A stretch of DNA of 64,000 nt from Candidatus Methanoperedenaceae archaeon (GCA_963753595.1 CAVWCX010000020.1:16280-80279); one strand, 5' to 3'; shown: positions 4,046 to 54,409, counted from the stretch's first letter. The notes: generated by a model not told the origin, from the letters alone. Translations and numbers: made by a program.

Positions 4046-4615
4046 ATGGAAACAATTATCGGAAACACCAGATTAATCCTCGTATGCGGGGATATCACAG
4101 AACAGGAAACTGATGCTATTGTCAATGCCGCAAATCCAGGTCTTATGGGGGGCGGCGGAGTGGACGGCGCTATTCACAAGAAAGGCGGTCCTGATATTTT
4201 GAAAGAATGCAAAATAATACGCAAGAGTTATCCTGATGGATTGCCAACGGGACAGGCAGTAATTACAACAGGCGGAGCACTGAAAGCCAAAAAAGTGATA
4301 CATACTGTGGGTCCTGTCTGGCATGGCGGAATTAATGAAGAAAGGCAACTGCTTGCAAACGCATATAAAAACAGTCTTAAGATAGCTATTGAAAACGGGA
4401 TCAAAACAATATCTTTTCCATCAATAAGCACAGGAGCTTATGGGTATCCTGTTGAAAAAGCAAGCGTTGCAGCGCTCAAAGCGGTCATAGGATTCCTGAA
4501 AAAATATAATGGTATTGAGGAAGTGCGATTCATTCTTCACAGCTCCCATGACCTTGCGACCTATGAACGGGCATTAACCGAAATTACGGGCAGATGCGCT
4601 GATTCGACAGGATGA
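4046..4615 (+). CDS. Macrodomain protein (O-acetyl-ADP-ribose deacetylase / ADP-ribosylhydrolase, YmdB-like)
   Basis: GDIT, IVNAAN, GGGGVDGAIH, VIHTVGP, FPSISTGAYGYP. Confidence 0.92.
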   Translation: METIIGNTRLILVCGDITEQETDAIVNAANPGLMGGGGVDGAIHKKGGPDILKECKIIRKSYPDGLPTGQAVITTGGALKAKKVIHTVGPVWHGGINEERQLLANAYKNSLKIAIENGIKTISFPSISTGAYGYPVEKASVAALKAVIGFLKKYNGIEEVRFILHSSHDLATYERALTEITGRCADSTG

Positions 4616-4676
4616 TACGGATTATGTAATTGAAAATCCGTCCGATCCGTGTCATCCGTGTTCAATTCAAACTAAA
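4589..4676. repeat. 9-nt-periodic palindromic element, ACGGAT/ATCCGT flavour, copy 1
   Basis: Left arm ...GACAGGAT GATACGGAT; right arm ATCCGTCCG ATCCGTGTC ATCCGTGTT; 4631-4676 matches 6870-6915 at 43/46 nt. Confidence 0.8.
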
Positions 4677-4842
4677 GACCCACAATATGGTAGATAAAGA
4701 AAGTATCGATCCTTGTTTTGCTAATTTGAAAGATAATTATTATCGTCCTATAGTGAGTTCATGGAGTGAATGCTATTTTTCTTGGGACAGACCGAGGATA
4801 ATAAGGCGCGAGTGAAAGTGCCATTTAGTATACCTCGGATGG

Positions 4843-5754
4843 TCACTTAAAACCAGATTTTTCTTTCATATTGAAAACATCGACATAAATAAGCCCCATG
4901 GTTTGAGCAGCTTTGACTTTCTTGTCAATCATATCTGTAAACGATGAGAGTCCATCCACTATTAAAGTCAAATCTCCTCCATCAAATAGGACAGTTTTAA
5001 GAGCTTTGCCATCCGTGAGAGATTTAAGAGAGCCATGTGAGTACCCATTTACTGAAATAAATACTCCTCGACCATACATTTTCCCCTCCACTTTGTAGGC
5101 AAATTGATACAGAGCATCAGAAGCAGTCAGCCAGTCTTGCCATTTTGCCTCGAAAATATAGTTTTCCCCTTCGAATTTTATAACTCCATCAATTTGTTCT
5201 CCATTTATTTTGAACGGCTCAGAAACAGATAACTTTTCATGTAAACATAATTCTCGCAGAAAGGATTCTAATAAATATCCACGTTTTTGTAAAGATATTA
5301 TTTTTCCTTGCTCATCTTTTCCTTGATATAGCAAGGTAAATTGGCTACGTAGATCTTCGAGTGTTTTTTTGGGCTTACTAGCTTCTTCATTTATTCTGGC
5401 AATATTCTTCTGTTGTTGTTTCAACTTTTCATCACGAATCTCTTGAAGCTCCTTGAGATGACTAATTCTACGTAAAGCATCATTTTTATCCAACTTTTTA
5501 AGTTTTTCAAAATAATAAGGATTAAAATTGTTCCAATCAATTAATGAATGAAGCATGCTCCGAAATTGCCCCAGCCCGCCATCATCTCTATTCTGCAATT
5601 TTTCGAAAACCCTATCAACTATTTCCGAGCGGTATATTTCAGGTTCTTTTGAATTTTGTACGTCTTTGAGATCCTGTGAAGTGCATCCATTATTCTGGAA
5701 GAAAGATATTATTTCCTTTTTTGGCCAAAAAATTGCGAGAATACAATCCCTCAT
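4843..5754 (-). CDS. Mrr-like PD-(D/E)XK restriction endonuclease-family protein
   Basis: RGYLLESFL, EQIDG...YIFEAKWQ, GVFISVNGYS; AT-rich coding region. Confidence 0.75.
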   Translation of the reverse strand: MRDCILAIFWPKKEIISFFQNNGCTSQDLKDVQNSKEPEIYRSEIVDRVFEKLQNRDDGGLGQFRSMLHSLIDWNNFNPYYFEKLKKLDKNDALRRISHLKELQEIRDEKLKQQQKNIARINEEASKPKKTLEDLRSQFTLLYQGKDEQGKIISLQKRGYLLESFLRELCLHEKLSVSEPFKINGEQIDGVIKFEGENYIFEAKWQDWLTASDALYQFAYKVEGKMYGRGVFISVNGYSHGSLKSLTDGKALKTVLFDGGDLTLIVDGLSSFTDMIDKKVKAAQTMGLIYVDVFNMKEKSGFK

Positions 5755-6065
5755 GCTATCTTTTATATCTTTAGGAAATGTGATTTTAATTTTTATACCA
5801 CCTATATATTAGATCATTATGTGGGGAATGGCATTGAATCATTTGAATCTTCGAAATCTTCTAAATCCAATCGGCAGTTAATATTAACTACTTCATCTTC
5901 CCTCTTTTCTATCAATAAGTATATATTAGTATTTAAAGATGAAATAAGCATTTAAATTCAAGTATCGACTGCAAGCTTTTTTTGGCGTCTTATTGCAGGA
6001 TTTTTATAAAATTATATGTTGTTTGGATAAAAAAAATATTCAAATGGATTGCATGTATTGGTTTC

Positions 6066-6081
6066 CTTTACTGAAAGGCGC
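6066..6081 (+). repeat. 16-bp direct repeat CTTTACTGAAAGGCGC, copy 1
   Basis: Exact match to 7693-7708. Confidence 0.7.
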
Positions 6082-6793
6082 AGGAAGTTATAATCACGTA
6101 TTAATATTCAATAAATATCAGTCGTTAGAGTCTGATATCTATTCTATAAGCAATTAATTATATTTACCCCAACCATTATCAGGATTTTTACGGCAGGTTA
6201 AAATGTAAATAATGCAATGTTGAATTGGAAAGTACATGTTAAAATTAAGGTATTGTTTTATTCTTATGGGAATCGCACTTTTTCTCTCAGCCACTATGAC
6301 TTCAAGTGAGGCTTCTGAAATAAACCAAACGGTTTTTGATAAACCTATGATATCGTCGATAGAAACAAAGCAAGTTGTAATTGGTGAACAAAATGATGAC
6401 CTATACATCACATTAGATAAGTGTTTACCTGACCAATTAATAGGACAGAATAAAGTAATTGTAATTGACGCTTCGGGGACTACCGGACTCAGAAACTCTA
6501 CATCTGAATTTTCAGTTAATAGTCTTATTCTTGCTAATGCTATCAACCTTATCCGAAGAATAAATCCCAACACCAATATTGGAATAGTTGCATTTGGGGG
6601 GTCTATAAATAAAACAGGGATTCTATCAATGAAGAATGAAACTAATAAAACATACCTTGAAAATTTCATAGGACAGATTGCTCCTAAAGGAGAAACAAAC
6701 CTTGATATAGGACTTCTTGCAGCAACTGAATTATTAAATTCAACCAACGGCAAAAAAGAGATTATATTATTCTCAGATGGTTTTATAACGACT

Positions 6794-6996
6794 CATTTGT
6801 CATCGGTTAAGAGAGAAATCATCAAATAGAACACGGATGACGCAGATGATACGGATGCGCACGGATCCGTGAAAATCCGCGCGATCCGTGTCATCCGTGT
6901 TCTATTCAAACTAAACCTGAAAAGCATGGAAAATTAACAACTCTTTGAACAATTGTATAGTACAAGCATGTTGAATTCCTTAACCGATGACCGATG
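6794..6996. mobile_element. 203-bp non-autonomous MITE with IS4-family (ISH8-like) ends
   Basis: TIRs CATTTGTCATCGGTTAAG / CTTAACCGATGACCGATG (16/18); 10-bp TSD TATAACGACT at 6784-6793 and 6997-7006; no transposase. Confidence 0.9.
6825..6915. repeat. 9-nt-periodic palindromic element, ACGGAT/ATCCGT flavour, copy 2 (inside the MITE)
   Basis: Perfect 17-bp inverted repeat AATAGAACACGGATGAC (6825-6841) / GTCATCCGTGTTCTATT (6890-6906), with four periodic units per arm. Confidence 0.88.
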
Positions 6997-7692
6997 TATA
7001 ACGACTGATAATAAGAGTTATGAAGCATTAGAAAAAATTGTGAAAGATATAAAGAAAAGGGATATTGAAATCAATTTTATCCAAATAATTACTTCAGACA
7101 AATATTTAGATTTTCTATTTCTTAGATATAATAAATTAGCTGAAGCTGTCGGTAGTCGGGTAATAATTCTGAATCCGGAAGACAGAGCGATACATTCTAA
7201 AGAACCTTCTTTGTTTGAATCCTGTTCTATGAAAACAAATGAAACAAATATAATAACGGTAACAACAAGTGATGGAACTCAAATTTCAGGCGCAGAAATA
7301 AGTTTGGACAATATTTCTATAGGGGAGACGACTCGTGGTGAACTTGGCTATACCACCCTCAGAACTGGAGAGCATTATTTTACCGCAAATAAATCTGGAT
7401 ACAATAAAGCTGTCATAAAAGCTGTAATCTCTTTGGAAAATATTACCGTAAAAAAAACCGACCCTTTCAATGACTCACAGTTGAAACCAGAGGTTAAAGA
7501 GGTAAAAGAACCATTAAACGGATTCGAAGGATTTCAAAAGAAACCATCTTGGTTAGAATCCACAATACATTCAATACTTGGCTGGTTTAGGTAGATTTTT
7601 TACCTATTATTTTCAAGTTCGCTTTCTAAATCTATTTTGAGAATATTTGCTATAATGTTGTCACTTCAAGGATTTACAGGTACTGTGACTTT

Positions 7693-7708
7693 CTTTACTG
7701 AAAGGCGC
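7693..7708 (+). repeat. 16-bp direct repeat CTTTACTGAAAGGCGC, copy 2
   Basis: Exact match to 6066-6081. Confidence 0.7.
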
Positions 7709-8735
7709 GCAGGGTGTCTATCTTATCCACTGAAATAAGCCCTCACCACACTTATCGCTTCTTGCTTTGTTATCGTTCCACTGAAATAATCTCTAACAGC
7801 CTGTACTGCCTCATTCTTGTCGATCTTTCCATTGCCATTCGTATCATAGCTTGTGGGAGTTGGGGTGGGAGTAGAAACTGGAACTACCTCAATAGTCCAA
7901 TTTATCCAATTTAAACATGAACCATTAACATTATTACAGGTTATATTAGTATAATTATTTCCAAGTTCAGTAAATGTTTTAAGGAAATTTCCTTCTGTTG
8001 TTTCATTTCCAGAAACATATAAACTATTTAGAGAAATCCAATCCACACTTTGATTTGAAGTTACATTAAAATAAATAGTAGTACCTTTTTTTACATTCAA
8101 AGATAATGAATCATTATTAGATTGATTATTTTCCCACGAAATAATGTTTGGATCTGGAGGAGGAGTTATTGTTACAGAAGGTGCCGTCATTGCAGTATGA
8201 TTTACCCAGGTTATATTGGTATTACCTGCAACATCGACCGTTCTTGTATTTAAGTTATAAATTGTATTGGGGGTCAATCCAGTTGCATTGTAATATTGAA
8301 TTCCTTTTGTGATATTGATCTGAAAAGATTCATTAAGATAAATCATCACTTTTTCGAAATCTTCGTCTGCAGAATCTGTCCATGTCCAGTTGATATAGGT
8401 TTGAGCATAGGAAATGTTATTCAAATTCGAGATAGTTTTTGGTGGAGTGATGTCTAAAGTGAAATTCATTGAAAGCGGTAGGTAGTCGATATTGTAAATG
8501 TCTAATGAATAGGATGAATCGCATATTCCATCTCCTTCGCTATCTATGCAGGTCTGGCTAAAACCTGTACCTTTTGGATTTACCCAGAAGTTACCACCGA
8601 AATGGAAGCCACCGATAATGTTAGTGCCCGATTTTTTCGTAATGTTCCATGTATCAATATTTGAGCCAGAGAATTCAAAATTGTTTGTATTATTGAAAAT
8701 GTTGTTGTAGATCATGTTATTGGTGGAATAACTAA

Positions 8736-10033
8736 GGGATTGCCGAAAAATAACTTATCTAAATTAATTCCCTTCCTCTTTTGGGGAAAGAGAATAATTC
8801 CATTTTGGGTGTAAAGAATGGTATTCTATCTTCAATCTTGCCATATCTTCATCAGAGAATTTAACTCCTTTATTATATTCCTTTTCATCTAATAGCGATG
8901 CCACAGTAAGACCTTTGTTTGTCTTTGTGCCACTGATCAGTTCAATAATTGTTTCAAAACTAACGAGCGGTTTCCCCTTCCAATTCATTGTAATGAATGA
9001 GAACATGCGATGTTCTATCTTGTTCCATTTGCTTGTCCCAGGAGGGTAATGGCATACGGTAATAGGTATTTTTATTTGGTTCACCAATTCTTGTAAATGA
9101 AATTTCCAGCCTTTATTGCGACTTCCATTGCTCCCCCCACCATCTGCACATATCATCAGACCTTTTGCATCTGGATAATTATTTCTTCCAAACATAAGCC
9201 ACCATTGCCTTATGCTTTCAACGGCAAATTCGGACGTATCATAACTCATTCCCACATTTACCATTCCTTCATTTCTCTTAAGATCATAAATCCCATATGG
9301 TGTCGCCCTTCCAATCCCAAGTGAAGGAAAATCATACACATTTACTTCTTTTGCCTTGCCTTTTTTCTCCCATGTTCTTCCAGGATTTTTGAATTCTCCT
9401 ACATTTTCTTTCTTTTTTGCATCAACTGATATTACGGGATACTCCTGATTTATAAATTCTTTAGCTTTTTCGTTTATATACCTGAACTGGGCATCTCTTT
9501 CGGGAACTGAAGAACCTTCGATGTTTTTCTTATTGGCCTGAAGCGAGTAATCGTTTTCCTTCAATAAACGTCCTACTGTATCTGGATCGATTTTATGTTT
9601 TAGCTTTTTCAATTCATCAGCGATCTTGTAGGTTGATTTGTTTGTCCATTTCAGCAGGCTCATTGGGTCGCCTGAGGTGTTTTCATCCATTATTTTTTCA
9701 AGATCTCCAATTATTTCGGGATCTTTTATTTCTACCTTTTTTCTTCCTCCTCCAAGTGCTCGAAGTCTTTCTGGAGGTTTAAGTTTCTCTGACGTTTTGA
9801 GTTCCTCTATCCCTTTATGGATAGTCGAATGGGACATGCCTGTTAATTCTTCAACTTTTGAGACTCCACCCCACCCAATTTCAAGTGCTATGGCTCCTGC
9901 AAAACGTCTTGCTTGAACTTCATCCGCTCCTGATAGGGCTTTTAGCCACCATGTGTACTCCTTGTTAGTATCCATGCCACTATATATGATGGCTTAGATT
10001 ATATAATTTACTAATTTATTTTTAGGTATTGCC
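8736..10033 (-). mobile_element. ISAzo13-family insertion sequence, 1298 bp
   Basis: Imperfect TIRs GGGATTGCCGAAAAATAACTTA / TAATTTATTTTTAGGTATTGCC; TAA duplicated at 8733-8735 and 10034-10036. Confidence 0.88.
8764..9975 (-). CDS. ISAzo13-family DDE transposase, intact
   Basis: GDPMSLLKWT, ISVDAKKKE, PYGIYD, ADGGGSNG, HYPPGTSKWNKIEHRMFS. Confidence 0.93.
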   Translation of the reverse strand: MDTNKEYTWWLKALSGADEVQARRFAGAIALEIGWGGVSKVEELTGMSHSTIHKGIEELKTSEKLKPPERLRALGGGRKKVEIKDPEIIGDLEKIMDENTSGDPMSLLKWTNKSTYKIADELKKLKHKIDPDTVGRLLKENDYSLQANKKNIEGSSVPERDAQFRYINEKAKEFINQEYPVISVDAKKKENVGEFKNPGRTWEKKGKAKEVNVYDFPSLGIGRATPYGIYDLKRNEGMVNVGMSYDTSEFAVESIRQWWLMFGRNNYPDAKGLMICADGGGSNGSRNKGWKFHLQELVNQIKIPITVCHYPPGTSKWNKIEHRMFSFITMNWKGKPLVSFETIIELISGTKTNKGLTVASLLDEKEYNKGVKFSDEDMARLKIEYHSLHPKWNYSLSPKEEGN

Positions 10034-11192
10034 TAAGAGAGATGCCGTAGCCGTTGTTCGATCCATTGTTGCTGCTCAGTATATTGTAATTGCTGGAATC
10101 GTATAATACAATGCCGTAATGGTTATTCGAATTGGCATTGTTGACGCTTAGATTGTTGTTGCTGGAAGAAGAAAGATATATGCCGTAGTTGTGGTTCGAG
10201 TTTGCATTATTGTAACTCAGAGTGTTGTTACTGGAAGACCACATAAAGATACCGCTGAAGGGATTCGAGATGGCATTGTTGCCGTTCAGAGTGTTGTTGT
10301 TGGAATAGAATAGAGAGATACCAACATTGTTGTTAGAAACATTGTTACCGTTCAGAGTGTTGTTGTTGGAATAGGACAAATCGATTCCATTGTAGTTGTT
10401 TGATGCATTATTTCCAATTAACTTATTGTTGTTTGAAATGACCTTAATCCCGGCATACGGAGAAGAGCCAGATAGTATCGCAGTAAATCCTTCAAGAGTA
10501 ATTCCATTCACAGAAAGCGTGATAGGGCTTCCAATTCCCCTGGCATCCACTACAGGCTGACTTCCATGCAAGGTCAATTTCTTATTCACGTTCACGTTTT
10601 CTATATATGTGCCGCTATTGACTTCGATAGTATCTCCAGGGTTTGCATTATCAATCGCATCTTGAATTCTCGTATAATCTGCACCGCCGCTATCATCAAC
10701 AGTCAATGTTGCTGCATTCGCACTGCTTGACAACAGTAATGCCAATATCGTTATTCCAACCACAATTCTAAGGGCTCCTCTGTAAAAGTTATTAGATACC
10801 ATTTTTATATCCCATCCATTGGTCTTAGACCATCTTTAAATAATCCAATCAGTAGATGACCCTATAAAGCTTGTTAAAATCTGCAAATTATGAATCTTTC
10901 AATTTATTAAGGAGACAGTAGATAAAATAAGGAACTATTTTATCGGGAATACTCCATATAGCAATATTATGCTTATCTGAGCCAAATGGGATTATGTAGT
11001 TACTTTAAAATTATCGAGACACAGTATACCTTAATAGCTCAAATAGGGGCATGTGGTATTTAATCATAGCATTCCCGATGATGTAGTGGTGATTTACTCT
11101 TTCAAAATCAGACATTGAAAAAACATTGGTATTAATACCTGTTGAGACAACTTCAATCTTATTATTTACACAGTTCTCATTAATAATCGAAA

Positions 11193-11277: not shown

Positions 11278-11333
11278 ATACTTCCTGCGAAATGGTCGGC
11301 ATGGTTAATAAAATCGTAGGTTAAGGGGCAGAG

Positions 11334-11424: not shown

Positions 11425-11505
11425 TAATATTGCCTACATGGAAACATTTAAAACTCAATCAATGGATTATTAACCCCAATCATAGAGTTATACAGAGGAA
11501 AAAAA

Positions 11506-19193: not shown

Positions 19194-19301
19194 GCTCCGA
19201 TAGTGTAGCAGGCCAATCATTCTGGCCTTTCAAGTTTTATGCGCCAACCGGTGCTGAAATAAAGACAGCCAGTGACTCGGGTTCAAATCCCGATCGGAGC
19301 A
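19194..19301 (+). tRNA. tRNA-Glu(TTC) with a 34-nt intron (19233-19266)
   Basis: GCTCCGA/TCGGAGC acceptor stem, GTTCAAATC T-loop, CTGGC-CTTTCA|intron|A-GCCAG; BHB motif with CTTT/AAAG helix and CAA and ACA bulges. Confidence 0.92.
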
Positions 19302-21462: not shown

Positions 21463-22376
21463 TGGATTTCTGGATACAGGTTTTACTGCTTGCGGTTCTT
21501 TTTGATATTATATTAGGAGAGATGCCTTCGTTTTTTCATCCGGTCGTGTGGATGGGAAAACTCATCAACCTGTTCGTGGACGCCGCCCCGCACCATTACA
21601 GGAAAATATATGGTCTATTCATGGTGATTTTTTGTGCAGGGATAACGGTTTTACTGGCAATATCCCTTGAATTGACAGGAACAGGAATTTTTGGACTGGT
21701 AATTACAGCATATTTTCTGAAATCCAGCTTTTCAATTCGCATGCTACTTGTTTCTGCCATCGGGATAAAAAAAGACCTTGATTCGGGAAAAATCGAAAAA
21801 GTAAGAAGTGACTTAAAAACCTTTGTGGGCAGGGATACATCAAAACTCAGCGAGCATCAATCGGCATCAGCTGTAATAGAATCATTGGCAGAGAGCTTTG
21901 TTGACGGCATATTATCACCTTTATTTTATTTCCTGGTTTTCGGTCTTCCGGGTGCACTTACTTACCGCATGATAAATACGCTTGATTCCATGGTTGGTTA
22001 TAAGAAAGAGCCCTTCAGGGAGCTTGGGTATGCAGCGGCAAAGGTTGATGATATTGTCAATTTAGTACCCGCGAGAATGTCACTCGTGATTATTTTTATA
22101 TCGTCAATTTTCTTTGGTAAACCGCTTGATGCCCTAAAAACCTGCGTCCTTGACCATAATAAGACTGCTTCCCCAAATTCAGGGTGGCCGATGGCTGCCG
22201 TTTCAGGCGCGCTCAATGTTCGGCTTGAAAAAGTTGGATATCATGTATTGGGGGATAAATATCAGCATCCAGGGGCAATACATATAAAAAAAGCAGTGTT
22301 TTTAGTGGGTTTTTCCTCTTTAATAGTTATTGGAGTAATATTTTTAATAGGAAAGATTCCTTTAGTCTTGTTTTGA
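21462..22376 (+). CDS. cbiB: Adenosylcobinamide-phosphate synthase
   Basis: HPVVWMG, VGRDT, ESLAES, YRMINTLDSMVGYK, SPNSGWP. Confidence 0.93.
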   Translation: MDFWIQVLLLAVLFDIILGEMPSFFHPVVWMGKLINLFVDAAPHHYRKIYGLFMVIFCAGITVLLAISLELTGTGIFGLVITAYFLKSSFSIRMLLVSAIGIKKDLDSGKIEKVRSDLKTFVGRDTSKLSEHQSASAVIESLAESFVDGILSPLFYFLVFGLPGALTYRMINTLDSMVGYKKEPFRELGYAAAKVDDIVNLVPARMSLVIIFISSIFFGKPLDALKTCVLDHNKTASPNSGWPMAAVSGALNVRLEKVGYHVLGDKYQHPGAIHIKKAVFLVGFSSLIVIGVIFLIGKIPLVLF

Positions 22377-22438
22377 ACTAAAAACCGCAAGAACATAGAT
22401 ATAGATTTAAATAAGGTAATAAGGGATTTATAAAATGG

Positions 22439-22579
22439 AACCGCAGATAAACGCAAATGAACGCAGATTGAATGAATCGGCTGAGCAGATCATTATGGAG
22501 AGCCATGTGTGTGGGCGATGTCAACTGGCGCAGCGTTCCAGTACAGCAAATCAGCGATTCTGGGCGTTCATCTGCGGTT
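22439..22579. repeat. 9-nt-periodic palindromic element, CGCAGAT/ATCTGCG flavour, with a residual internal segment
   Basis: Left AACCGCAGATAAACGCAAATGAACGCAGATT; right AATCAGCGATTCTGGGCGTTCATCTGCGGTT; lies between cbiB and cobZ. Confidence 0.8.
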
Positions 22580-22637
22580 TATTTAAATTTGAAATATTGA
22601 ACACCCACAAAGAAAGTTTGAATTATTGGAGAAACTT

Positions 22638-24621: not shown

Positions 24622-24673
24622 AATCCGCCATGGTCAGCGGCTTTTTAACTAATTCTTTATTGCAGCGAAAATC

Positions 24674-24743
24674 AACCACAGAGAACACAGAGTTCACAGA
24701 GATTGGCTGTTTATTCTCTGTGTCCTCTGTGCACTCTGTGGTT
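24674..24743. repeat. 9-nt-periodic palindromic element, CACAGAG/CTCTGTG flavour
   Basis: AACCACAGAG AACACAGAG TTCACAGAG - spacer - CTCTGTGTC CTCTGTGCA CTCTGTGGTT. Confidence 0.88.
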
Positions 24744-24778
24744 TTTACACTATCTTAACAAAATAAAAAGTATTTTTT

Positions 24779-34229: not shown

Positions 34230-34355
34230 ATGTTAGAATTGGTAAGAGAAAAATCTGGTTTCGATAAAGAAGATTCCTTTTTCAAAATGCAAACTTTCCG
34301 GGCATCCAGAGACTTATCAGAAGAGCATGATGAAATTTATGACGAAAAAATATGA
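34230..34355 (+). pseudogene. Short ORF resembling an antitoxin C-terminus; no toxin follows
   Basis: MLELVREKSGFDKEDSFFKMQTFRASRDLSEEHDEIYDEKI; DLSxxHDxxxY tail. Confidence 0.4.
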
Positions 34356-34381
34356 AATAGAACACGGATTTGCTCATCCGT
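34356..34381. repeat. Collapsed ACGGAT-flavour palindromic element
   Basis: AATAGAACACGGAT identical to 6825-6838, followed by TTGCTC ATCCGT. Confidence 0.65.
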
Positions 34382-34403
34382 AAATATTACTTTTATTGCA
34401 TTA

Positions 34404-36406: not shown

Positions 36407-36507
36407 CTGGATCATCCTTTTACCTTTCAAAATATGGCTTTCCGGATATTAAAAACTTTGTCAAAAAAGAGTTTGTCAAAAAGTTTGGTGGGGGCTATCA
36501 TGAAATA

Positions 36508-36601
36508 GTTGGAAATAAGAAACCGCAGATGAACGCCGATAAACGCGGATTGTGATAGCGTATCGCCGTTCATTTGCATCTGCGGTTTTATTGGTTCCAA
36601 C
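36508..36601. repeat. 9-nt-periodic palindromic element, CGCAGAT flavour
   Basis: GTTGGAA..AAACCGCAGAT GAACGCCGAT AAACGCGGAT / CATCTGCGGTTTT..TTCCAAC. Confidence 0.82.
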
Positions 36602-36796
36602 AAACACCAAAAGATTTTACACCCATAAAAATAATATAATTTCATAATAAACACAACTACAAGATTTATCTTCGAAAAGAGGGAAAAATGGGAATAAATG
36701 TAGTTTCAAACGACTACAAAACAATTAAATTCTTGAAGTTTGAAAATGTTTAAATATCATTAGCTCTTCATCTGACTTCCTCTAAGGGAGCAATAT

Positions 36797-46624: not shown

Positions 46625-47791
46625 CTAACTCCACATCTGGCCGCCGAGTATCGTTTCGGTCTTATCGTTGGTGCTCTGGTGAATTTTTTTGATCCTGACA
46701 AGAAATTCATTTCCTATTTTCTCAGGCTGCTCAAAAACAGCATCTACTCCCAGTAATCTAAGGAACTCTTCAAATTCCGTAACGGTTTTAAGGCTTTTCA
46801 CCCTTATCTGTACATTTTCAGCAATTCGTTCTCCATATTTCTTCTTTTTAATTGTGGAGATCATGGGCAGGAGTATGCTTTCCCCAAGTTCCTGGCATCT
46901 TTTCCTCGCACTATCCTCATCTTCATCCCATTCTACTGACTGGAATGCTTCCCTGCAAACCCTTCCGAAGAAAAAATCCCGTCCAAAATCATTGTAGAAT
47001 TCAAAAGCATATTTGAGATCGGCGCAATTACTGAGCGAGCTTGTGTACTTGACCGGGGGCACGATCATTTGAGGGTCTTTAATGACAACGCCTTCGCGTA
47101 ATGTGTCACCAAAACCCTTTATGATGTCCGTAATTGCATCATGAGCCTCTGGGACATCGAATTCACCAAAAAGATGCACGGATTTTATCCCGTATTCATC
47201 CATAAGTTTTCGCCTTTCCGTTACAGGCATGGGATTTCCGGAATTTTTTTCCCTGACATCAAAAACAAAAAAATCCAGGGATTCTATGTTATAAAATGTT
47301 TTAGGTACATAAGGGCTGTCCGGTCCTACCATCTCGCCGGCCAGCACAAGTTCCGGATGGTCATGGAAAAAGTCCAGCCCGATCAGGTCATTTGCCTTCT
47401 GCGTTGTATAAGGACATATAAAACCGCCGCGAGTAAGCGCTACAAGTTTATCGCCGATCAGTGTTACCCTGACGTTGTACCCGTTCATTTTCTCTTCAAC
47501 CGCCACTTTATTGCAGGAAGAAAAATGCTTAATGAGCGCTGGATACAGCATCAAGGTGCGTGATATCTTAGGAAAACCCCGCACGATCCCGAATGGTTCA
47601 AGAAATACGCAAGTTCCTCCTTCGACAGAGGAAACCGGCTTATCGAACCTGAATAAATCCAGTTTCCCATATACATATTGTAAAGTCTTTCGTCTCAGCG
47701 CCCCTGTAATGCTATGTTCGGGAATATCCAGCAGGCGGGATATTTTTCCAATATCAAGTTTATTAGTTAATTCTGAGACATCCCGTCTCAT
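46625..47791 (-). CDS. ATP-dependent RNA ligase, Pab1020/Rnl3 family
   Basis: RGFPKI, EEKMNGYNVR, TRGGFICPY, GEMVG, REGVVIKD, KYT. Confidence 0.92.
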   Translation of the reverse strand: MRRDVSELTNKLDIGKISRLLDIPEHSITGALRRKTLQYVYGKLDLFRFDKPVSSVEGGTCVFLEPFGIVRGFPKISRTLMLYPALIKHFSSCNKVAVEEKMNGYNVRVTLIGDKLVALTRGGFICPYTTQKANDLIGLDFFHDHPELVLAGEMVGPDSPYVPKTFYNIESLDFFVFDVREKNSGNPMPVTERRKLMDEYGIKSVHLFGEFDVPEAHDAITDIIKGFGDTLREGVVIKDPQMIVPPVKYTSSLSNCADLKYAFEFYNDFGRDFFFGRVCREAFQSVEWDEDEDSARKRCQELGESILLPMISTIKKKKYGERIAENVQIRVKSLKTVTEFEEFLRLLGVDAVFEQPEKIGNEFLVRIKKIHQSTNDKTETILGGQMWS

Positions 47792-48570
47792 CCTTTTGCC
47801 GCCACATACTTTATGATCTCTCGCCTGCTGATAACCCCTACCATTTCATCCCTCAGGTTCAACACAGGCACTCCGCCAATGTTTTCTTTCAGGAGAATCG
47901 ATATTACTTCAGTTATCGGGGTATTTGTCCGGACTGATTTTACATTGTGGGTCATAATATCACCCACTATCAGATTGCGGATCCTCACATCCTGCTGATT
48001 GTCAGGTACCAGATCCCTGAAATTCATCAATGCTTTTGCAACATCTCTTTCAGTGATAATTCCGACAATATCGCCGTTTTCGACGACAGGTAATCTTCCG
48101 ATATCGTTATCGAGCATAATACGTCTTGCATGGGAAACCCTGTCTCCCGGACTTATGGAAATCGGCTCTTTCAGGATCTCGGCGGCATATCCCTTTATGC
48201 CCTTTGCGTTTTTCAGGATCTCATGAGGAGTGACCCACCCCATGATCTTACTATTATCCGTTACTATCAGGATCCCGCCTTTTCTGTCCATCAATGCGGT
48301 CGCATCTTCTATACCCATATCAGGGAGTACCCTGGTGAATGCATCCGTTGTTGCAGATGTAACATGCAGCGATGATGCCGGAAGATTTGAAGTCTTCCAG
48401 GTCCCGAGTTTGTTGGCAATGCTTCTCATAGTGATTACCCCCGTAGGCTCACTTTCGTTAAGGACAAGAAGCCTTCGTGTATCATGTTTATCCATCAGGT
48501 CCATTGCATGTGATATCTTATCTGATTTATGCACAGTAATTGCTTCACTCATTATGTTTTTTACGTTCAT
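47788..48570 (-). CDS. CBS-domain protein (four CBS repeats)
   Basis: IGRLPVV, GIITERD, IGGVPV. Confidence 0.88.
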   Translation of the reverse strand: MNVKNIMSEAITVHKSDKISHAMDLMDKHDTRRLLVLNESEPTGVITMRSIANKLGTWKTSNLPASSLHVTSATTDAFTRVLPDMGIEDATALMDRKGGILIVTDNSKIMGWVTPHEILKNAKGIKGYAAEILKEPISISPGDRVSHARRIMLDNDIGRLPVVENGDIVGIITERDVAKALMNFRDLVPDNQQDVRIRNLIVGDIMTHNVKSVRTNTPITEVISILLKENIGGVPVLNLRDEMVGVISRREIIKYVAAKG

Positions 48571-48579
48571 AGTATCACC

Positions 48580-49428
48580 TCACATTGTCAATATAGTCTT
48601 TATTATGTTCTCCCCTGTCAATATTCCCTTGACCCCATTTCCCAATACTGAGAGCCCATTGATCCTTTCTTTGACCATCAAACCCGCTGCATAGGTCGCA
48701 AGGTCTTCATAATTCACATTGATTATCGGGCTTGACATTATATCTTCTGCCACCAGGGGTACTTCGCTTATATACCTGTTCTGTTTTCGTCCTGCTGCGC
48801 TCTCTTTTCGTGTCATTTTTATTTCTTTCTGCGGGAGGCCCCCGGTTTTGTCCCTCATTTCCGTGAAGGTCAGATTTGAATTGGTAATTATCCCCACAGG
48901 CATATCGTTATCTTCAAGGACAATTGCCCTGTCTGCTGAATTTGCCTGCAGCTCGTGTATTATATGGCTTATAGTATGATGCCTGTGAACAGTCAGGGCT
49001 GGTTCAATTTGCAGGTCCTTGACTTTCATATCAAGATCCAATTTAGAAAAATACCTGATCAAATCCCATTTTGTGGCTATTCCTATGACTTCATCTTTAT
49101 TGTTCACTACAGGTAATCCGCCGATATTGTTCTCGGTCATTAGCTCGGCCAGTTGCTTAACTGTTGCATCCGGAAATATCGTTATAAAGCTCTCGGTCAT
49201 TACCTTTCTTACGGGTATGTCATCGATCGGGCGCCTGCGCCACTGTGGTTCGGCCTGGCTAAGCCTCTTTACGATATCCTTCTTTGTCACCATTCCTATA
49301 GGCTTGTTATTTTCAACAATTACAAGTCTCCCTATCTTATGGCGAAGCATCAGGTTCCTTGCTCGTGCTACATTTTCATCAGGCGATACAACAAAAACAG
49401 GTGCGCTCATTATATCTTTTATTTTCAT
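48580..49428 (-). CDS. CBS-domain protein (four CBS repeats)
   Basis: DIMS, IGRLVIV, IGGLPVV. Confidence 0.88.
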   Translation of the reverse strand: MKIKDIMSAPVFVVSPDENVARARNLMLRHKIGRLVIVENNKPIGMVTKKDIVKRLSQAEPQWRRRPIDDIPVRKVMTESFITIFPDATVKQLAELMTENNIGGLPVVNNKDEVIGIATKWDLIRYFSKLDLDMKVKDLQIEPALTVHRHHTISHIIHELQANSADRAIVLEDNDMPVGIITNSNLTFTEMRDKTGGLPQKEIKMTRKESAAGRKQNRYISEVPLVAEDIMSSPIINVNYEDLATYAAGLMVKERINGLSVLGNGVKGILTGENIIKTILTM

Positions 49429-49437
49429 AATAACCTC

Positions 49438-50373
49438 TTAATCAGCCATTGCACGGACAAAATCACGTTCGGTGATAATTCCTTTCAATTCACCATCTTC
49501 AAGCACAGGAAGTGAGCCCACATCCTTATCCAGCATCACATTTGCGGCCTCCCCAAGGTCAACATCCGATTTCGTAAATATTATTTCCCTTGTTAAGAGT
49601 TTGCTGACCGGAACCTGGAAAACTTCCCTGCCGTTCCCTGTTACAAGCCGGTCAAACATATCACCATCTCCCAGGAAACGCATAATGTCTGAAGCCGTTA
49701 TGATGCCAATAAGTACATCATCCCGAAGAACAGGAAGTCTCCTGAAACCATTGTTGATCATGGACTTGGCGGCTGCCCCTACTGACATATCAGAAGGTGC
49801 TGTCACTATTTTCTTGCTCATGTATTCTTGCACGGTCTTACCCGTAACGATACCGGATAACAGGAAAACAAAATCCCTCTCGGAAACGATCGCTTTTACT
49901 GCGCCATCTTCATCCGTTATTGGGATGCCTCCGATCTTCTCTTTTATCATGGTGTTCATTGCATCTTTCAGTGAATCTTTTACATTCAGGGAAATTACTT
50001 CTGTTTCCATGATCTCACTGATACTGCCGTTAACAGCTGCAAGCATATTGCCTTTGAATTTGTTTTTAACCAGCAAATTCCTCTGGCCGCCTCCAAGGAA
50101 ATCCACAATGTCATTTGATGTAACAATTCCTTTCAGATGTTTGGTGCCGGCGTCTGCTATGGGAATTCTTCTAAAGCCATGATTCAGCATGGTCTTGACA
50201 GCACCTATTATGGGCATTGTAGGGGGAATGGTGATAACCTCGTTTGATGCTATGCTCATTATATCCCCGGGTTTTTCTGAAATCCTTGATTTGAAGTCGA
50301 TGGGTCCCATATTCCGCATATATCCCTTCCGACCCTGCTTTGCTATATTTACATTATTGCCAGATTTATTCAT
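49438..50373 (-). CDS. CBS-domain protein (four CBS repeats)
   Basis: FRRIPI, DFLGGG, FRRLPV, GIITERD. Confidence 0.88.
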   Translation of the reverse strand: MNKSGNNVNIAKQGRKGYMRNMGPIDFKSRISEKPGDIMSIASNEVITIPPTMPIIGAVKTMLNHGFRRIPIADAGTKHLKGIVTSNDIVDFLGGGQRNLLVKNKFKGNMLAAVNGSISEIMETEVISLNVKDSLKDAMNTMIKEKIGGIPITDEDGAVKAIVSERDFVFLLSGIVTGKTVQEYMSKKIVTAPSDMSVGAAAKSMINNGFRRLPVLRDDVLIGIITASDIMRFLGDGDMFDRLVTGNGREVFQVPVSKLLTREIIFTKSDVDLGEAANVMLDKDVGSLPVLEDGELKGIITERDFVRAMAD

Positions 50374-50382
50374 AAAACACCT

Positions 50383-51156
50383 TTAGATGAATGCTTTAAT
50401 TATATCGTTCCTGTCAACTATGCCGATGAGTTTTCCGTCGTTTGTTATTGAAATCCTTCCTACGTCAAGCTTCATGAATGCCTGTATCGCTTCAGCAAGC
50501 GAAGCTTCGGAGGATAACGTATATGCCGGAGTGCTCATTATCTTTTCAACAGGTGGCGACATCGTGGATTTTGTTCCCTGGTTATCTTCTCTTTCGATCC
50601 TGGCATAGCCGGCATTGATTATATTGCGCCGTGTTACCATTCCCACGAGTTCTCCGTTTTTCAACACCGGAAATCCCGATATGCCGGTTTGTTTCATGTT
50701 CAGCCATACTTTGGAAATATGGTCTTTGTTTGAACAAGTTTTTACATTTGTAGTCATTATTTCATGGATCTTTCTATCAGGTATTTTATCCGTTTTCAGG
50801 TTCCTGAAAATATCAACAACACTTAATAACCCTACAAGTGTCATATCCTGTCCCGATTTCAGGACTGGAACACGTCCCATGCCTGCATCCATCATTAATT
50901 TAGCAGCTTCCATCAAGCCCATTTCCGGATATATGTATGGGAACTCTGATGTGAACCCTTCAACAGTTACATTTGATTTAGTTGAATATATATTCAACAA
51001 TTCTTTTTCTGTCAGGATCCCTATAACCCTCTTTTTTGCATTGATCACTGGCAGGGTCCTGTAATGCCTGTCCCGCATCACCTGGCGCGCGTGCGTCATA
51101 AAATCCGTATCCTGAATAAAAACAGGATTTTTGGTCATTGCCTCTTCAACTTTCAT
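50383..51156 (-). CDS. CBS-domain protein (four CBS repeats)
   Basis: YRTLPVI, ISGFPV, GIVDRND. Confidence 0.88.
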   Translation of the reverse strand: MKVEEAMTKNPVFIQDTDFMTHARQVMRDRHYRTLPVINAKKRVIGILTEKELLNIYSTKSNVTVEGFTSEFPYIYPEMGLMEAAKLMMDAGMGRVPVLKSGQDMTLVGLLSVVDIFRNLKTDKIPDRKIHEIMTTNVKTCSNKDHISKVWLNMKQTGISGFPVLKNGELVGMVTRRNIINAGYARIEREDNQGTKSTMSPPVEKIMSTPAYTLSSEASLAEAIQAFMKLDVGRISITNDGKLIGIVDRNDIIKAFI

Positions 51157-51227
51157 AACATACTCCTTTTATCATGTATAATTATGTTATATGTTAATTT
51201 ATCTAAAATACTTTGCAAGCTGCTATT

Positions 51228-51776
51228 TCAGGTTTCCCTGCAGCTTTCACAGAGAAGTTTTCCTTCTAACTCTAACAAGTTATCTGAAATGTATCCGCAA
51301 TCCTCACAGATACCTTTAAAAACCCGTCCTTCTGTCTCCATGGAAAGTAATTTTTCCCTGTGCATCTTGATCAGGTCTGAGAATATGCTGCCCATTTCAG
51401 CCGAAACAGCAAGAAGATCGGTATCCGTAATAATACCAACCAGTTTTCCATTTTCCACTATCGGCAACCGCCGTATCTCCATTTTTACCATCTTATGCAT
51501 CGTTTCGGTGACGTCATCTGTTGAAGATATAGAGATAAGAGGCGTGGTCATTAATTCTTTAATGGAAATTTCCTCCGGTTTTAAATTCTTTGAGACGATC
51601 TTTTTGACAATATCCCGTTCTGTAACTATACCGACTGGCTGTTTCTTGTCGGTGACAATGACACTTCCAACCTTGAATGTAAGCATTTTCTTTGCTAATT
51701 GCTGGACATCACTTTTAATATCCACGGTTACAACATCCCTGGTCATTATTTCTTTCACCGGCATCTTAACTTCCAT
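51228..51776 (-). CDS. CBS-pair protein with a C-terminal Zn ribbon
   Basis: GIVTERD, IRRLPIV; GICEDCG...LLCESC. Confidence 0.88.
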   Translation of the reverse strand: MEVKMPVKEIMTRDVVTVDIKSDVQQLAKKMLTFKVGSVIVTDKKQPVGIVTERDIVKKIVSKNLKPEEISIKELMTTPLISISSTDDVTETMHKMVKMEIRRLPIVENGKLVGIITDTDLLAVSAEMGSIFSDLIKMHREKLLSMETEGRVFKGICEDCGYISDNLLELEGKLLCESCRET

Positions 51777-51851
51777 ATTTTCAGTCCTCCCTAAAGTATA
51801 ACTATGTATTTTGGAGCGTTTATATGTTATGCTGGGTAAATTTGAAATGTT

Positions 51852-52262
51852 TTACTGTTTTAGCATTTTTACCATTTTAATAGCAGCTTCGACCGCCCTT
51901 TTGCCATATTCCACTCGTTCATGGGCATCAAGCCTGCTCATGCCAGGACCGGATATCCCCAGGGTTATGGGTTTTGAAAATTCAAGAGCAAGATCGGCGA
52001 TCTTTCGTGAGGCATGCTGAATCACGAGCTCATCGTGTTTTGTTGCTCCCTGTATAACGCAGCCAATAGTTACTACTGCGTCTATTGTTTTATCCTGCGC
52101 CATTTTTTTTACAGCCAGGGGCATGTCAAAAACTCCAGGCACATAATAAATTTTTTCAACTGTGGCGCCAAGGAACGCTGCATGTTCTTTTCCGAGCGTT
52201 TCCATCTGGATGGTAAGATCACGGTTGAATTCTGAAACAACAAATCCTAATTTAATACTCAT
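51852..52262 (-). CDS. ribH: 6,7-dimethyl-8-ribityllumazine synthase
   Basis: VVSEFN, VPGVFDMP, GCVIQGATKHD, LGISGPG. Confidence 0.93.
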   Translation of the reverse strand: MSIKLGFVVSEFNRDLTIQMETLGKEHAAFLGATVEKIYYVPGVFDMPLAVKKMAQDKTIDAVVTIGCVIQGATKHDELVIQHASRKIADLALEFSKPITLGISGPGMSRLDAHERVEYGKRAVEAAIKMVKMLKQ

Positions 52263-52435
52263 TTTGGCACCTGATAAGTTATATTATTTGGAACATCTAT
52301 ATATTTTTCGATACAGTTTTGAAAAGTTCATGATTTTTGTATTTCGAAAAAATAATCGTACTAAACAAAAAAAAAGTGATTATGAAACATTTATATCCCT
52401 TATTAATGTAATGAAAGCCAAAGAAGGTACCTATT

Positions 52436-53431
52436 ATGGTTAAAATATACTATGACAAGGATGCAGATCTGAAAATACTGAAAAAGAAGACAATTGCCGT
52501 TATTGGTTATGGCAGTCAGGGAGCAGGACAGGCGCAGAACCTGCATGATTCAGGACTGAATGTAATTGTGGGTGTCAGGAAAGACGGGGAGTCATGGGCC
52601 CAGGCAAAAGCTGATGGCTTGAAAGTCATGACAATGTCTGATGCAGCAAAGAAAGCTGATGTCATCCAGATGCTCGTACCCGATGAAATACAGGGTGCAA
52701 TTTATGCGTCTGAGATCGCCCCGAATATGACCAAGGGCAAGACATTATGTTTCTCACACGGATTTAATATCCATTATAACCAGATCGTTCCGCCAAAGGA
52801 CGTTGATGTAATAATGGTTGCGCCAAAAGGTCCGGGTTTCCTTGTACGCAGGACATATACCGAAGGAAACGGTGTTCCTGCACTCATTGCGATATACCAG
52901 GATGCAACGGGAAAAGCAAGGGAAACGGGCATGGCTTATGCAAAAGGGATTGGGGCAACAAGAGCAGGCGTGCTTGAAACAACATTCAAGGAAGAGACAG
53001 AGACTGACTTATTTGGTGAGCAGGTTGATCTTTGCGGTGGAGTCACATGTCTTATGAAAGCCGCATTCGAGACACTTGTTGCTGCAGGATACCAGCCAGA
53101 GATCGCTTATTTTGAGACTTTCCATGAAATGAAACTCATAATTGATCTCATTCATGAAGGTGGATTAAGCAAGATGTGGTACTATGTGTCAAACACTGCC
53201 GAGTACGGCGGTCTTACAGTCGGGCCTAAGGTCATAAATGAACAGTCAAAACTGGCAATGAAAGAGGCGCTTCGCAGGATCCAGAATGGGGAATTTGCAA
53301 AAGAATTCGTCCTTGAAAGCAAAGCCAACAGGCCGGTCCTTAATGCTATGGAGAGACAGGAGAACGAGCATCAGGTTGAGAAGGTCGGAAAAGAGCTTCG
53401 CGCCATGATGCCTTGGTTGAGAAAGGATTAA
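52436..53431 (+). CDS. ilvC: Ketol-acid reductoisomerase
   Basis: [36 protein letters not shown]. Confidence 0.96.
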
Positions 53432-53444
53432 AGGAATCATTTTT

Positions 53445-53485
53445 CAGGGTCGCGGTAAATCCCGATCCTGCACATATTTTTTTTC
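53445..53485 (+). terminator. Hairpin plus T-tract after ilvC
   Basis: CAGGGTCG...CGATCCTG followed by a T-run. Confidence 0.45.
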
Positions 53486-53567
53486 AAATAAACTCCGAAA
53501 TATTCCCTGGCTTTATAGCAAAGAGGGTAAGGGCTAGTTTTAATAACTACAAATCCAATTATCGAAC

Positions 53568-53774
53568 ATGCAATTCACGGTAAAACTCGAAGAAGCTGAT
53601 GAGGGAGGGTATACCGTCCAATGTCTTGAACTTCCTGCTGCAATAAGTGAAGGAGATACAAAAGAAGAAGCTCTCGAAAATATTAAAGAAGCAATTCAAC
53701 TGGTTCTTGAAGTCTCACAGGAGCAAGCATGGTCGTACACTGAAGTCTTTAAAGTGGAAGTTGCAAGTGCCTAA
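53568..53774 (+). CDS. HicB-family antitoxin (orphan)
   Basis: EGGYTVQCLELPAAISEGDTKEEALENIKEAI. Confidence 0.87.
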   Translation: MQFTVKLEEADEGGYTVQCLELPAAISEGDTKEEALENIKEAIQLVLEVSQEQAWSYTEVFKVEVASA

Positions 53775-53787
53775 ACTTCCTTCTTGA
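53767..53787 (+). pseudogene. Truncated HicA start (MPKLPS*)
   Basis: GTGCCTAAACTTCCTTCTTGA overlaps the hicB stop; parallels the MKLP start of the intact HicA. Confidence 0.5.
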
Positions 53788-53842
53788 TGAGCTTGATGAA
53801 GTCTGGTATGAAATTGCATTTATCGATGAGCTTATAAATGAT

Positions 53843-54067
53843 TTAAAGAAGATTGTATAAATCATCAATTGATATTTCCGCATCTCTCAACAATTTTCTG
53901 AGTAAACCTTTTCCGATTACTTTATGGTTTGGTATGGAAAGCGGTTTTTTTGACCTATCTGATTGATGCTTCATTCGAATATGGCTGCCGGTTTGCCTGG
54001 CCGTAACATAACCCAATTTTCCAAATGCCTTTACTGCATCTTTACCAGATATGACCGGCAATTTCAT
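53843..54067 (-). CDS. HicA-family toxin
   Basis: MKLPVISG, RQTGSH, IPNHK.IGKGLL. Confidence 0.9.
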   Translation of the reverse strand: MKLPVISGKDAVKAFGKLGYVTARQTGSHIRMKHQSDRSKKPLSIPNHKVIGKGLLRKLLRDAEISIDDLYNLL

Positions 54068-54312
54068 GCTTCTACTGCTACCGTATGGAAACTGAATTCC
54101 TGGATTTTTGCAATATCAGAAATTTCATCATCACTCTCTTCTTCAAGACACATTTCAATTACTTCGCGTATATTTATGAGAGCTTCATCAAGAGTCTTTC
54201 CCTGGGTATAACAACCTTTTAATAGTGGGCATTCTACCACATAAAAACCATCTTCATCTTTTTCAACAATTACGGGTAAAGTGATTTTTGTGGATTTTAG
54301 TTTCCTTGCCAT
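54064..54312 (-). CDS. HicB-family antitoxin
   Basis: DEDGFYVVECPLLKGCYTQGKTLDEAL; ATGA overlap with hicA. Confidence 0.9.
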   Translation of the reverse strand: MARKLKSTKITLPVIVEKDEDGFYVVECPLLKGCYTQGKTLDEALINIREVIEMCLEEESDDEISDIAKIQEFSFHTVAVEA

Positions 54313-54371
54313 AGTTGATTTGAAATGCTATTCCAAGATTTAAGGATGTCGCAATCTTGTGTCTCATGTTG

Positions 54372-54409
54372 AATCTGTGACAATCCCTCAAGTCCCGGTC
54401 ATCCGTGTG
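54372..54409. repeat. Solo arm of an ACGGAT-flavour periodic element
   Basis: AATCTGTGAC AATCCCTCA AGTCCCGGT CATCCGTGT; GTCATCCGTGT is shared with copies 1 and 2. Confidence 0.5.

Follow-up and report, generated by a model that had tools for sequence, protein, structure and literature searches.

Periodic intergenic palindromes of a Candidatus Methanoperedenaceae archaeon as probable gene-less or decayed derivatives of a small GxxExxY gene cassette

The window is a 64,000-nucleotide stretch of DNA from a Candidatus Methanoperedenaceae archaeon (G000:C20:16280-80279), analysed here for short palindromic elements that lie between its genes; G000 is the assembly of this archaeon, with 2.89 Mb in 37 contigs, a G+C content of 40.5% and a completeness of 92%. 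The window genes are archaeal and methanogen-like; they include TYW1, an archaeal methionine adenosyltransferase, CobY, a Hef-associated nuclease, HdrA2/B/C and CODH. A preliminary description listed seven elements with one architecture, in which three or four units of about 9 nt are followed by reverse-complementary units. Five of these are real, one of them as a truncated copy; a sixth is doubtful and the seventh is rejected. The elements are of types D, E and F, each with its own repeated word. They and the insertions that carry them are as follows.

4631-4676: 5'-truncated E-type copy, with the right arm, the 3' tail ATTCAAACTAAA and one degenerate left unit.
6794-6996: classical MITE (miniature inverted-repeat transposable element) of 203 bp; its terminal inverted repeats CATTTGTCATCGGTTAAG are 18 bp long and its target duplication TATAACGACT is 10 bp.
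6825-6906: gene-less E-type hairpin, with four CRCGGAT words per arm and the termini AATAGAAC...GTTCTATT.
22387-22622: insert of about 236 bp that follows the cbiB stop codon and precedes the ribosome-binding site of cobZ, holding an F-type relic.
22435-22582, plus strand: putative decayed F-type cassette, with an ATG at 22435, a left arm at 22439-22469 and a right arm at 22549-22579.
24625-24775 (approximate bounds): block of about 150 bp where cobY and PAC2 converge, holding a D-type hairpin.
24674-24743: gene-less D-type hairpin, consisting of AAC, three CACAGAG words, a 12-nt loop, three CTCTGTG words and GTT.
34352-34384: possible E-type vestige, uncertain, with the terminus word AATAGAACACGGAT and one reverse unit (folding z score -2.4).
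36520-36588: degenerate F-type hairpin, given as 36508-36601 in the preliminary description (folding z score -3.82).

Elements were checked by reading coordinates, and with a repeat finder, Tandem Repeats Finder and RNA folding z scores. Three CRCRGAK words at period 9, with at most two mismatches, match the window seven times against 0.00 expected from 100 shuffles; the match at 2482-2506 is intragenic and probably unrelated to the elements. Arms, folding z scores or both confirm the elements at 6825, 22439-22579, 24674-24743 and 36508-36601. The E-type hairpin at 6825-6906 has 41-nt arms that are 78% complementary and folds as RNA at -46.4 kcal/mol (z -8.15); copies on contigs C3 and C6 are 87-88% identical to it. 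Arms of the D-type hairpin are 29 nt long and 86% complementary (z -7.16), and a stretch of about 81 nt around it (24667-24747) recurs in G000 at 84-89% identity and is also found in relatives.

The F-type element at 22439-22579 has 31-nt arms, 77% complementary and 79 nt apart, with a folding z score of -2.76. Its left arm consists of AACCGCAGAT-type words at period 10 within the first codons of the open reading frame (ORF) that starts at 22435. This ORF retains about 20 N-terminal codons of a GxxExxY gene, to approximately 22494, after which the sequence is unrelated filler. At the DNA level, intact F-type genes align by their 5' end with the stretch from 22408 or 22433 to 22493 (79-87% over 61-89 nt) and by their 3' arm with 22550-22584; the middle is without homology. 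A six-frame profile search of the window for gene remnants gives nothing significant, and the F-type relic is too short for it. Judged from these alignments, 22435-22582 reads as a decayed cassette that keeps the start, about 20 codons and the 3' arm.

The degenerate F-type hairpin at 36520-36588 lies at a synteny break between an OsmC-like gene and hdr genes. Window positions 36468-36625 (approximately) have a paralogue at C19:39286-39525, which includes the hairpin and both flanks. The C19 copy has an extra G+C-rich insert of about 80 nt within the hairpin, and the hdrCBA2 genes are on other contigs in relatives. Synteny with the five closest relatives breaks at 36454-36743 and from 4617 onward, at or near elements in both cases.

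The other three elements of the preliminary description fare less well. At 4589-4676 the right arm and 3' tail are present (4631-4676 is 93% identical to 6870-6915 over 46 nt); the supposed left arm at 4589 is the 3' end of a macro-domain gene, conserved in the relative G049, itself element-free. About 4 kb following the macro-domain gene is strain-specific, and G046 and G052 have a tRNA gene there instead. The element described as collapsed at 34356-34381 is doubtful: it has one unit per side, and a 19-nt word matches an E-type terminus elsewhere in the genome. The solo arm proposed at 54372-54409, upstream of small HicAB-like genes, has neither another copy in the genome nor a fold (z +0.22).

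The same architecture is found throughout the genome. A flavour-blind detector takes any 6-mer repeated three or more times at a spacing of 8-11 nt; in G000 it returns 117 hits, grouped in 87 clusters. Six flavours predominate, each with its own word.

A word: AACGAACT, period 10.
B word: GACAGGAT, period 9.
C word: CCGCAAAG, period 9.
D word: CCACAGAG, period 9.
E word: AACRCGGAT, period 9.
F word: AACCGCAGAT, period 10.

The claim that unit words vary while period and arm complementarity persist therefore holds across six flavours. Word-specific chaining gives 185 arms of at least two units, which fall into 51 forward/reverse pairs and 83 unpaired arms; 50 pairs span less than 600 bp and one, at 4.8 kb, is spurious. 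Further copies of the elements, for which a pattern scan had been proposed, are thus plentiful. Forty-two of the 50 pairs lie outside crude ORF calls, though 84% of the genome is called coding; 20 are between tandem genes, 13 between convergent genes and 8 between divergent genes, and one is at a contig edge. Elements of different flavours cluster side by side, and at C23:90065-90278 a D-type element is nested within an E-type element. One B-type arm in a relative (L005, G010:C50:5217-5349) has grown to about 15 tandem ACAGGATAT units, so slippage can change unit number.

Where elements with the same arms are longer, a gene lies between the arms. At C30:60866-61368, an E-type element of 503 bp contains an ORF that matches TIGR04256 (GxxExxY; E 1.4e-32, 112.5 bits, cut-off 35) and the Pfam family PDDEXK_3 (PF13366; E 8.7e-34, 116.8 bits, cut-off 22). 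G000 has three such loci, all broken, and no intact gene. A gene fragment at C27:47971-48141 adjoins an A-type arm, and long B-type elements hold a remnant of a related ORF that is visible by eye and lies below the profile threshold. The preliminary proposal that the palindromes are non-autonomous derivatives of an element that brackets a cargo gene is borne out by these longer copies.

Most relatives carry the gene intact, in 1-7 copies. Matches to it are present in 33 of 41 genus genomes, with up to seven in each and many without an internal stop. The flanks of 26 such genes were inspected and contain tandem-word arms, with all six flavours represented. C- and D-type 5' arms stop 1-2 nt ahead of the ATG; F-type 5' arms lie within the first codons (ATGGAACCGCAGAT...), and those of the B, E and A types are about 25-70 nt upstream.

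Arms and proteins have diversified together. When arm flavour, assigned by eye from the flanks of the 26 genes, is placed on the protein tree, it changes six times, which is the minimum; shuffled flavours give a mean of 15.2 changes, and none of 200 shuffles is as low. The C-type proteins are sister to the D type, and the E type to the B type. Gene presence and arm number were compared for the B type across 24 genus genomes. Genes with at least 81% identity to the B-type gene L196 are found in G016, G007, G050, G008 and G045. Three genomes with the gene have 23, 9 and 31 B-type arm matches, compared with a median of 1-2 in the 21 without it (one-sided Mann-Whitney p 0.014, for genomes that are kin and not independent). 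These counts lend weak support to an autonomous/non-autonomous relation.

The elements are insertion-polymorphic among relatives. ACAGGAT repeated three times is found in 18 of 41 genomes searched (G000 itself, 15 among the 24 other genus members and 2 among 16 genomes from other families), with a copy number of 0-31 per genome; a reversed-pattern control gives 0. The insert of about 236 bp between cbiB and cobZ is absent in six aligned relatives. This spacer is 270 bp in G000 and 17-58 bp in 13 relatives. In G014 (841 bp) and G053 (1379 bp) it holds an intact F-type gene, whose first arm begins at the cbiB stop codon. By coordinates, the same junction has an intact F-type gene in G056, G023 and G019 and a fragment in G051. 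The D-type block of about 150 bp between cobY and PAC2 is present in G049 and absent in G052, G050 and G004.

The empty cbiB-cobZ sites of G049 and G050 hold CCGCAAA and CCGCAGA words; this may be chance, and no footprint is claimed. An RNA contig that skips 22371-22617 was considered as a splice product and rejected, since it fits the empty junction of relatives and hence a strain difference; the three RNA libraries consist of contigs only, from relatives about 90% identical. Comparison of a 20-kb stretch (C24:78000-97900) with five relatives is too mosaic for clean empty sites and yields an ISAzo13 insertion only. A near-identical element is present in a Methanosarcinales archaeon record (L060).

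The protein of intact cassettes, of about 125 amino acids, is under purifying selection. G22, G24, E27, Y30 and E31, as well as the PD-(D/E)XK catalytic residues D67, E77 and K79, are invariant in 22 genus proteins. The ratio of nonsynonymous to synonymous substitution rates within flavours is 0.02-0.17 in all 19 computable pairs, and three more pairs are saturated. Arm words are unchanged in pairs with saturated synonymous sites, for example the C-type pair L183/L186 (synonymous divergence about 2.1), so the words themselves are under constraint.

An AlphaFold model of the protein has a mean pLDDT of 95.3. Its Foldseek matches are weak (best E 2e-3) and all fall among the PD-(D/E)XK nucleases, represented by the lambda exonuclease, Cas4 and Hjc types. 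A wide structural search gives scores in the middling range (Cas4 SSO0001, Z 8.0; BpuSI, 7.9; AF1548, 7.6; Hjc, 6.6), while a sequence search of solved structures finds no relative. From the model, the cargo protein is probably a nuclease. For PF13366, the passages available of PMC3424549 give 'Unknown' as the function and record 'multiple transfers' between Bacteria and Archaea; in those of PMC8934634, the mention of GxxExxY is incidental. The gene query has no match in phage records and eight matching plasmid records, six of them annotated 'GxxExxY protein'.

The architecture extends beyond the genus. CRCGGAT repeated three times at period 9 has at least 123 loci in reference genomes. Among the matches listed are Verrucomicrobiota, Planctomycetota, Acidobacteriota, Bacteroidota, Chloroflexota, Leptospirales, Calditrichia and an Akkermansia metagenome-assembled genome (MAG), together with isolates of Luteimonas arsenica and Citrifermentans bremense, a Thermoplasmatota MAG and a Methanosarcinales MAG. 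The strict pattern is on both strands in 15 of 80 matches listed, and many more have an imperfect reverse arm. A GxxExxY ORF lies within the 300-nt flanks at 7 of these 123 loci.

Mirrored arms also flank bacterial genes of this family. In five bacterial genomes, five of nine full-length genes have clean mirrored arms by eye, including one in the Luteimonas arsenica isolate. The metagenome sample is non-random, since it consists of the 80 best relatives of one D-type query, of which 70 have adequate flanks; 58 of these 70 genes score at least 12 for an upstream/downstream inverted repeat, against none of 70 with a shuffled downstream flank (maximum 11.5). This local-alignment score replaced an exact-6-mer arm detector, which found arms on both sides in 24 of 70 and missed imperfect units. 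Several bacterial elements (L027, L056, L090 and others) have arms of different words; L027, for example, combines a CACGGAT left arm with a CTCTGTG right arm, and CTCCGTG is also found as a right-hand word. All three units within an arm carry the identical change, so each arm is homogenised on its own.

We therefore favour, with a probability of about 0.85, the reading that a small selfish nuclease cassette is the parent of the periodic palindromes, which would be its gene-less or decayed derivatives. The full cassette would be about 0.5 kb long and consist of a 5' arm, a PD-(D/E)XK gene and a reverse-complement 3' arm. Its 5' arm would be (A)AC followed by three or four tandem units of 8-10 nt, each a purine-rich word of 6-7 nt (CRCRRAK-like) with a variable spacer of 2-3 nt. 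Internal deletion of the gene would fuse the arms and leave hairpins of 50-90 nt, such as those in the window.

How such a cassette might move is suggested by its sequence. Each arm may be an array of recognition words, spaced at about one turn of the DNA helix. The cassette nuclease or a partner would bind the words at both ends and join the ends; cutting would then drive spread at the DNA level, by cut-and-paste or by break repair in a homing-like manner. Gene-less hairpins would persist, or move in trans as MITEs do. Identification and mechanism taken jointly stand at slightly better than even odds. The word-array, nuclease-driven mechanism in itself is tentative and rated below even odds, chiefly because the unrelated cargo family PF05635 shares the arm chassis. 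PF05635 is the protein family of 23S ribosomal RNA (rRNA) intervening sequences. Mirrored tandem-repeat arms flank 14 of 15 of its genes in three bacterial genomes (score at least 12, shuffled controls at most 9.5), with units of about 6-7 nt; there are no PF05635 matches in G000.

These arms also belong to the strongest alternative, which acts at the RNA level and which we consider possible, if unlikely. Here the arms would pair in the transcript around the ORF, and a double-strand ribonuclease (RNase) would cut the stem; cutting would insulate host transcripts and control the small gene, gene-less hairpins would be inert or stabilising, and mobility would come from elsewhere. There is a precedent in the intervening sequences, which are described as ORFs within a stem of terminal inverted repeats that is excised by RNase III (PMC4990558, in the passages available). 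G000 has two RNase III-domain ORFs of about 150 amino acids above the Pfam cut-off (C3:60065-60439 and C4:61061-61432), and the domain has no match in three control archaea. The C3 ORF is about 440 bp from an F-type arm (C3:59602-59628). RNA pairing would also fit the C, D and F types, in which 5' arm and start codon adjoin or overlap, the compact hairpins that fold at z -7 to -8 relative to shuffles, and the location of elements within operons such as cbiB-cobZ.

Substitutions in the arms do not follow the pattern of an RNA stem. Elements were oriented by their gene in a set of 71, consisting of 58 from metagenomes and 13 genus loci that pass the score (at most 23 tested). In the 57 of these with a purine-rich 5' arm, 57 arm mismatches are G-U-compatible when read on the sense strand and 54 when read on the antisense strand; transversions between the arms number 106. 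Spacers in the 50 pairs of G000 are complementary at only 57 of 147 comparable positions, and 17 of the spacer pairs are of unequal length; the words in this comparison are complementary by construction. The absence of a G-U bias and the poorly complementary spacers indicate that what is kept is a tandem mirrored word and not a continuous duplex or a sense-strand stem. The preliminary idea of a long RNA or single-stranded DNA duplex between the arms is thus unsupported. By their sequence the arms could pair in shifted registers, as the preliminary description suggests. Nor does a stem alone explain why each arm is a tandem array of a single word, or why words are retained at synonymous saturation. 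Word conservation favours recognition by a factor, besides which an RNA role may exist.

Very improbably, the elements could be ordinary MITEs, that is, deletion derivatives of a DDE insertion sequence such as ISAzo13, moved by its transposase. An ISAzo13-family insertion sequence lies at 8732-10037 of the window, with its transposase at 8764-9975 on the minus strand; its 12 genome copies are 99.8-100% identical, which indicates recent activity. Like MITEs, the elements are short, palindromic, intergenic, multi-copy and insertion-polymorphic, and the hairpin at 6825-6906 is inside the true MITE at 6794-6996. This MITE has three identical genome copies (6794-6996, C24:80468-80670 and C1:5159-5361) and splits a gene; when it and its duplication are removed, a single open frame of 385 amino acids is obtained (6236-7594). 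The 10-bp duplication of the MITE has no counterpart in the elements. A direct repeat beside the palindrome measures 0 nt in 22 of the 50 paired elements, 1 nt in 19, 2 nt in 5, 3 nt in 3 and 4 nt in one, so that 41 of 50 have at most 1 nt; the preliminary statement that target-site duplications are lacking is upheld. The only gene found between the arms is PDDEXK_3, with no DDE transposase, and the architecture, even the word, is shared across many bacterial phyla.

Ends that carry several direct copies of a binding word, inverted between the two ends, are known from Tn7, Mu and the inverted repeat/direct repeat type of Tc1 elements. The elements resemble such multi-site transposons and their MITEs in that gene-less deletion derivatives retain both ends. 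They differ in having neither target-site duplications nor a DDE transposase, and in units of only 8-10 nt.

It is just as improbable that the hairpins are owned by the host, as terminators, messenger RNA stabilisers or protein-binding sites, or that they are integron-like recombination sites. Convergent gene pairs hold 13 of 41 intergenic elements, a modest excess over their share of junctions (17%) and of intergenic length (20%). Runs of A and T bracket the A-type elements, and the D type ends in GGTTTTT. Against a host function, orthologous sites are empty in close relatives, copy number varies from 0 to 31 among species and 8 of 41 elements are between divergent genes. Because the elements are multi-copy, patchy and insertion-polymorphic, they are not the ordinary conserved terminators at orthologous positions that the preliminary description had named as an alternative. 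They may have a secondary role as terminators.

Integron attC sites are likewise imperfect palindromes that border small genes. Two relatives have arrays of small toxin-antitoxin-type genes, L237 (G009:C38:18000-27500) and L238 (G008:C36:171000-181500). Their genes are MqsA/DUF4258, PIN, UPF0150/HicB, DUF5615/DUF433 and YafQ/RelE-like, separated by multi-flavour arm clusters in a recurring order that recalls cassette arrays. In contrast to attC sites, the elements are scattered singly among housekeeping genes, and the attC words RYYYAAC / GTTRRRY are in none of the 50 elements; no integrase search was made.

Movement of the elements as repetitive extragenic palindromes (REP) or REPINs by a RAYT (Y1 HUH) transposase is scarcely credible: the resemblance put forward in the preliminary description is real in that both are high-copy extragenic palindromes in multi-flavour mosaics (like those called BIMEs) whose non-autonomous copies far outnumber a repeat-flanked linked gene, and G000 has three Y1_Tnp (PF01797) matches, but membership fails, as none of the three has an arm within 5 kb, the arms are tandem word arrays, the linked gene is PDDEXK_3 and the termini are (A)AC...GT(T) instead of the REP word GTAG.

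Among known systems, the intervening sequences of 23S rRNA (S23p / PF05635) are the closest in plan, as they are likewise a small ORF within terminal inverted repeats able to form a long stem. They are regarded as selfish, with origin and mobility unexplained, and the passages available of the same source do not describe tandem-word arms (PMC4990558). The cargo differs, being PD-(D/E)XK here and a four-helix bundle in intervening sequences; these are located in rRNA, whereas the window elements are between protein-coding genes. The arm units of the PF05635 genes, of about 6-7 nt, compare with 8-10 nt here, and an archaeal host and abundant gene-less copies also set the present elements apart.

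Tandem heptamers of Xanthomonas (GGGAATC), described as orphan repeats, and of Nostoc (GGGGAYT) are a second likeness: both they and the present elements are convergently paired tandem arrays. The heptamers are intergenic and mostly of about four units (Rehm et al. 2015, PMC4692102), with 70-75 convergent opposite-strand pairs per Xanthomonas genome. In the passages available of that paper they are read as quadruplex-forming and generally not associated with mobile elements, and no cargo gene is described. The elements are best filed with hairpin-bracketed small ORFs that have MITE-like gene-less derivatives, and not with REP/RAYT systems, DDE MITEs or attC sites. No paper in the searchable literature ties these genes to tandem-word arms; subscription journals and curators' family descriptions are outside that scope.

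Several observations weigh against a selfish nuclease cassette. The inserted blocks at cbiB-cobZ and cobY-PAC2 are both about 80-100 bp longer than the element, so exact element ends are not readable from them; alignment of these orthologous sites, as proposed in the preliminary description, thus gives empty sites and no exact boundaries. B-type copies in G000 (C10:3732, C34:100543, C27:10580, C24:13030 and C24:15360) and elsewhere (L196, L203) share conserved sequence for at least 40-60 nt beyond both arms, across copies and species; the B-type unit may therefore exceed its arms, or it may insert into a repeated target. No target-site duplication marks any of the 50 paired elements, and the copy at 6825-6906 moved as a passenger of an ordinary MITE.

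The tie between arms and gene is open to similar objections. Co-diversification of arms and proteins is expected from physical linkage alone, without a functional tie. PF05635 is a non-catalytic four-helix bundle with similar arms; that one chassis carries two cargo families with no relation to each other argues that arm function may not depend on cargo chemistry. B-type arms are found without a B-type gene in G017 (26 matches; 99% complete), G020 (31) and G024 (21), so arms persist without a resident gene. G000 itself has about 50 elements and no intact gene in an assembly that is 92% complete.

Two minor features of the window stand apart from the elements. An Rfam tRNA match of 108 nt at 19194-19301 has no ARAGORN call and is probably an archaeal tRNA with an intron. 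At 54720-54756 there is one match to the CRISPR-DR7 repeat model with no surrounding array; small HicAB/UPF0150-like ORFs are found just upstream (53569-54315).

A wider reading is speculative, and we hold it to be doubtful: the cassettes may form a mobile class found in Archaea and many bacterial phyla, moved by a minimal PD-(D/E)XK nuclease of about 125 amino acids that acts on its own mirrored words of 6-7 nt. If true, this chemistry of transposition or homing would be unlike that of DDE, HUH, serine or tyrosine enzymes. Intervening sequences of rRNA and the orphan convergent heptamers of Xanthomonas would be built on the same tandem-word hairpin chassis, and several long-unexplained repeat families would be accounted for together.

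Elements of this kind break MAG assemblies, where contigs end at an element; they also mark synteny breakpoints and sit within operons. The GxxExxY / PDDEXK_3 gene, annotated in many genomes with its function listed as unknown, gains a DNA context. Given this tie to the architecture, the protein is predicted to recognise and cut the words at its flanks. Archaeal and bacterial intergenic hairpins, rRNA intervening sequences and tandem heptamers may be one kind of element. If the nuclease reads a clade-specific word, the family would amount to a naturally occurring collection of small sequence-specific nucleases, together with their matching sites.

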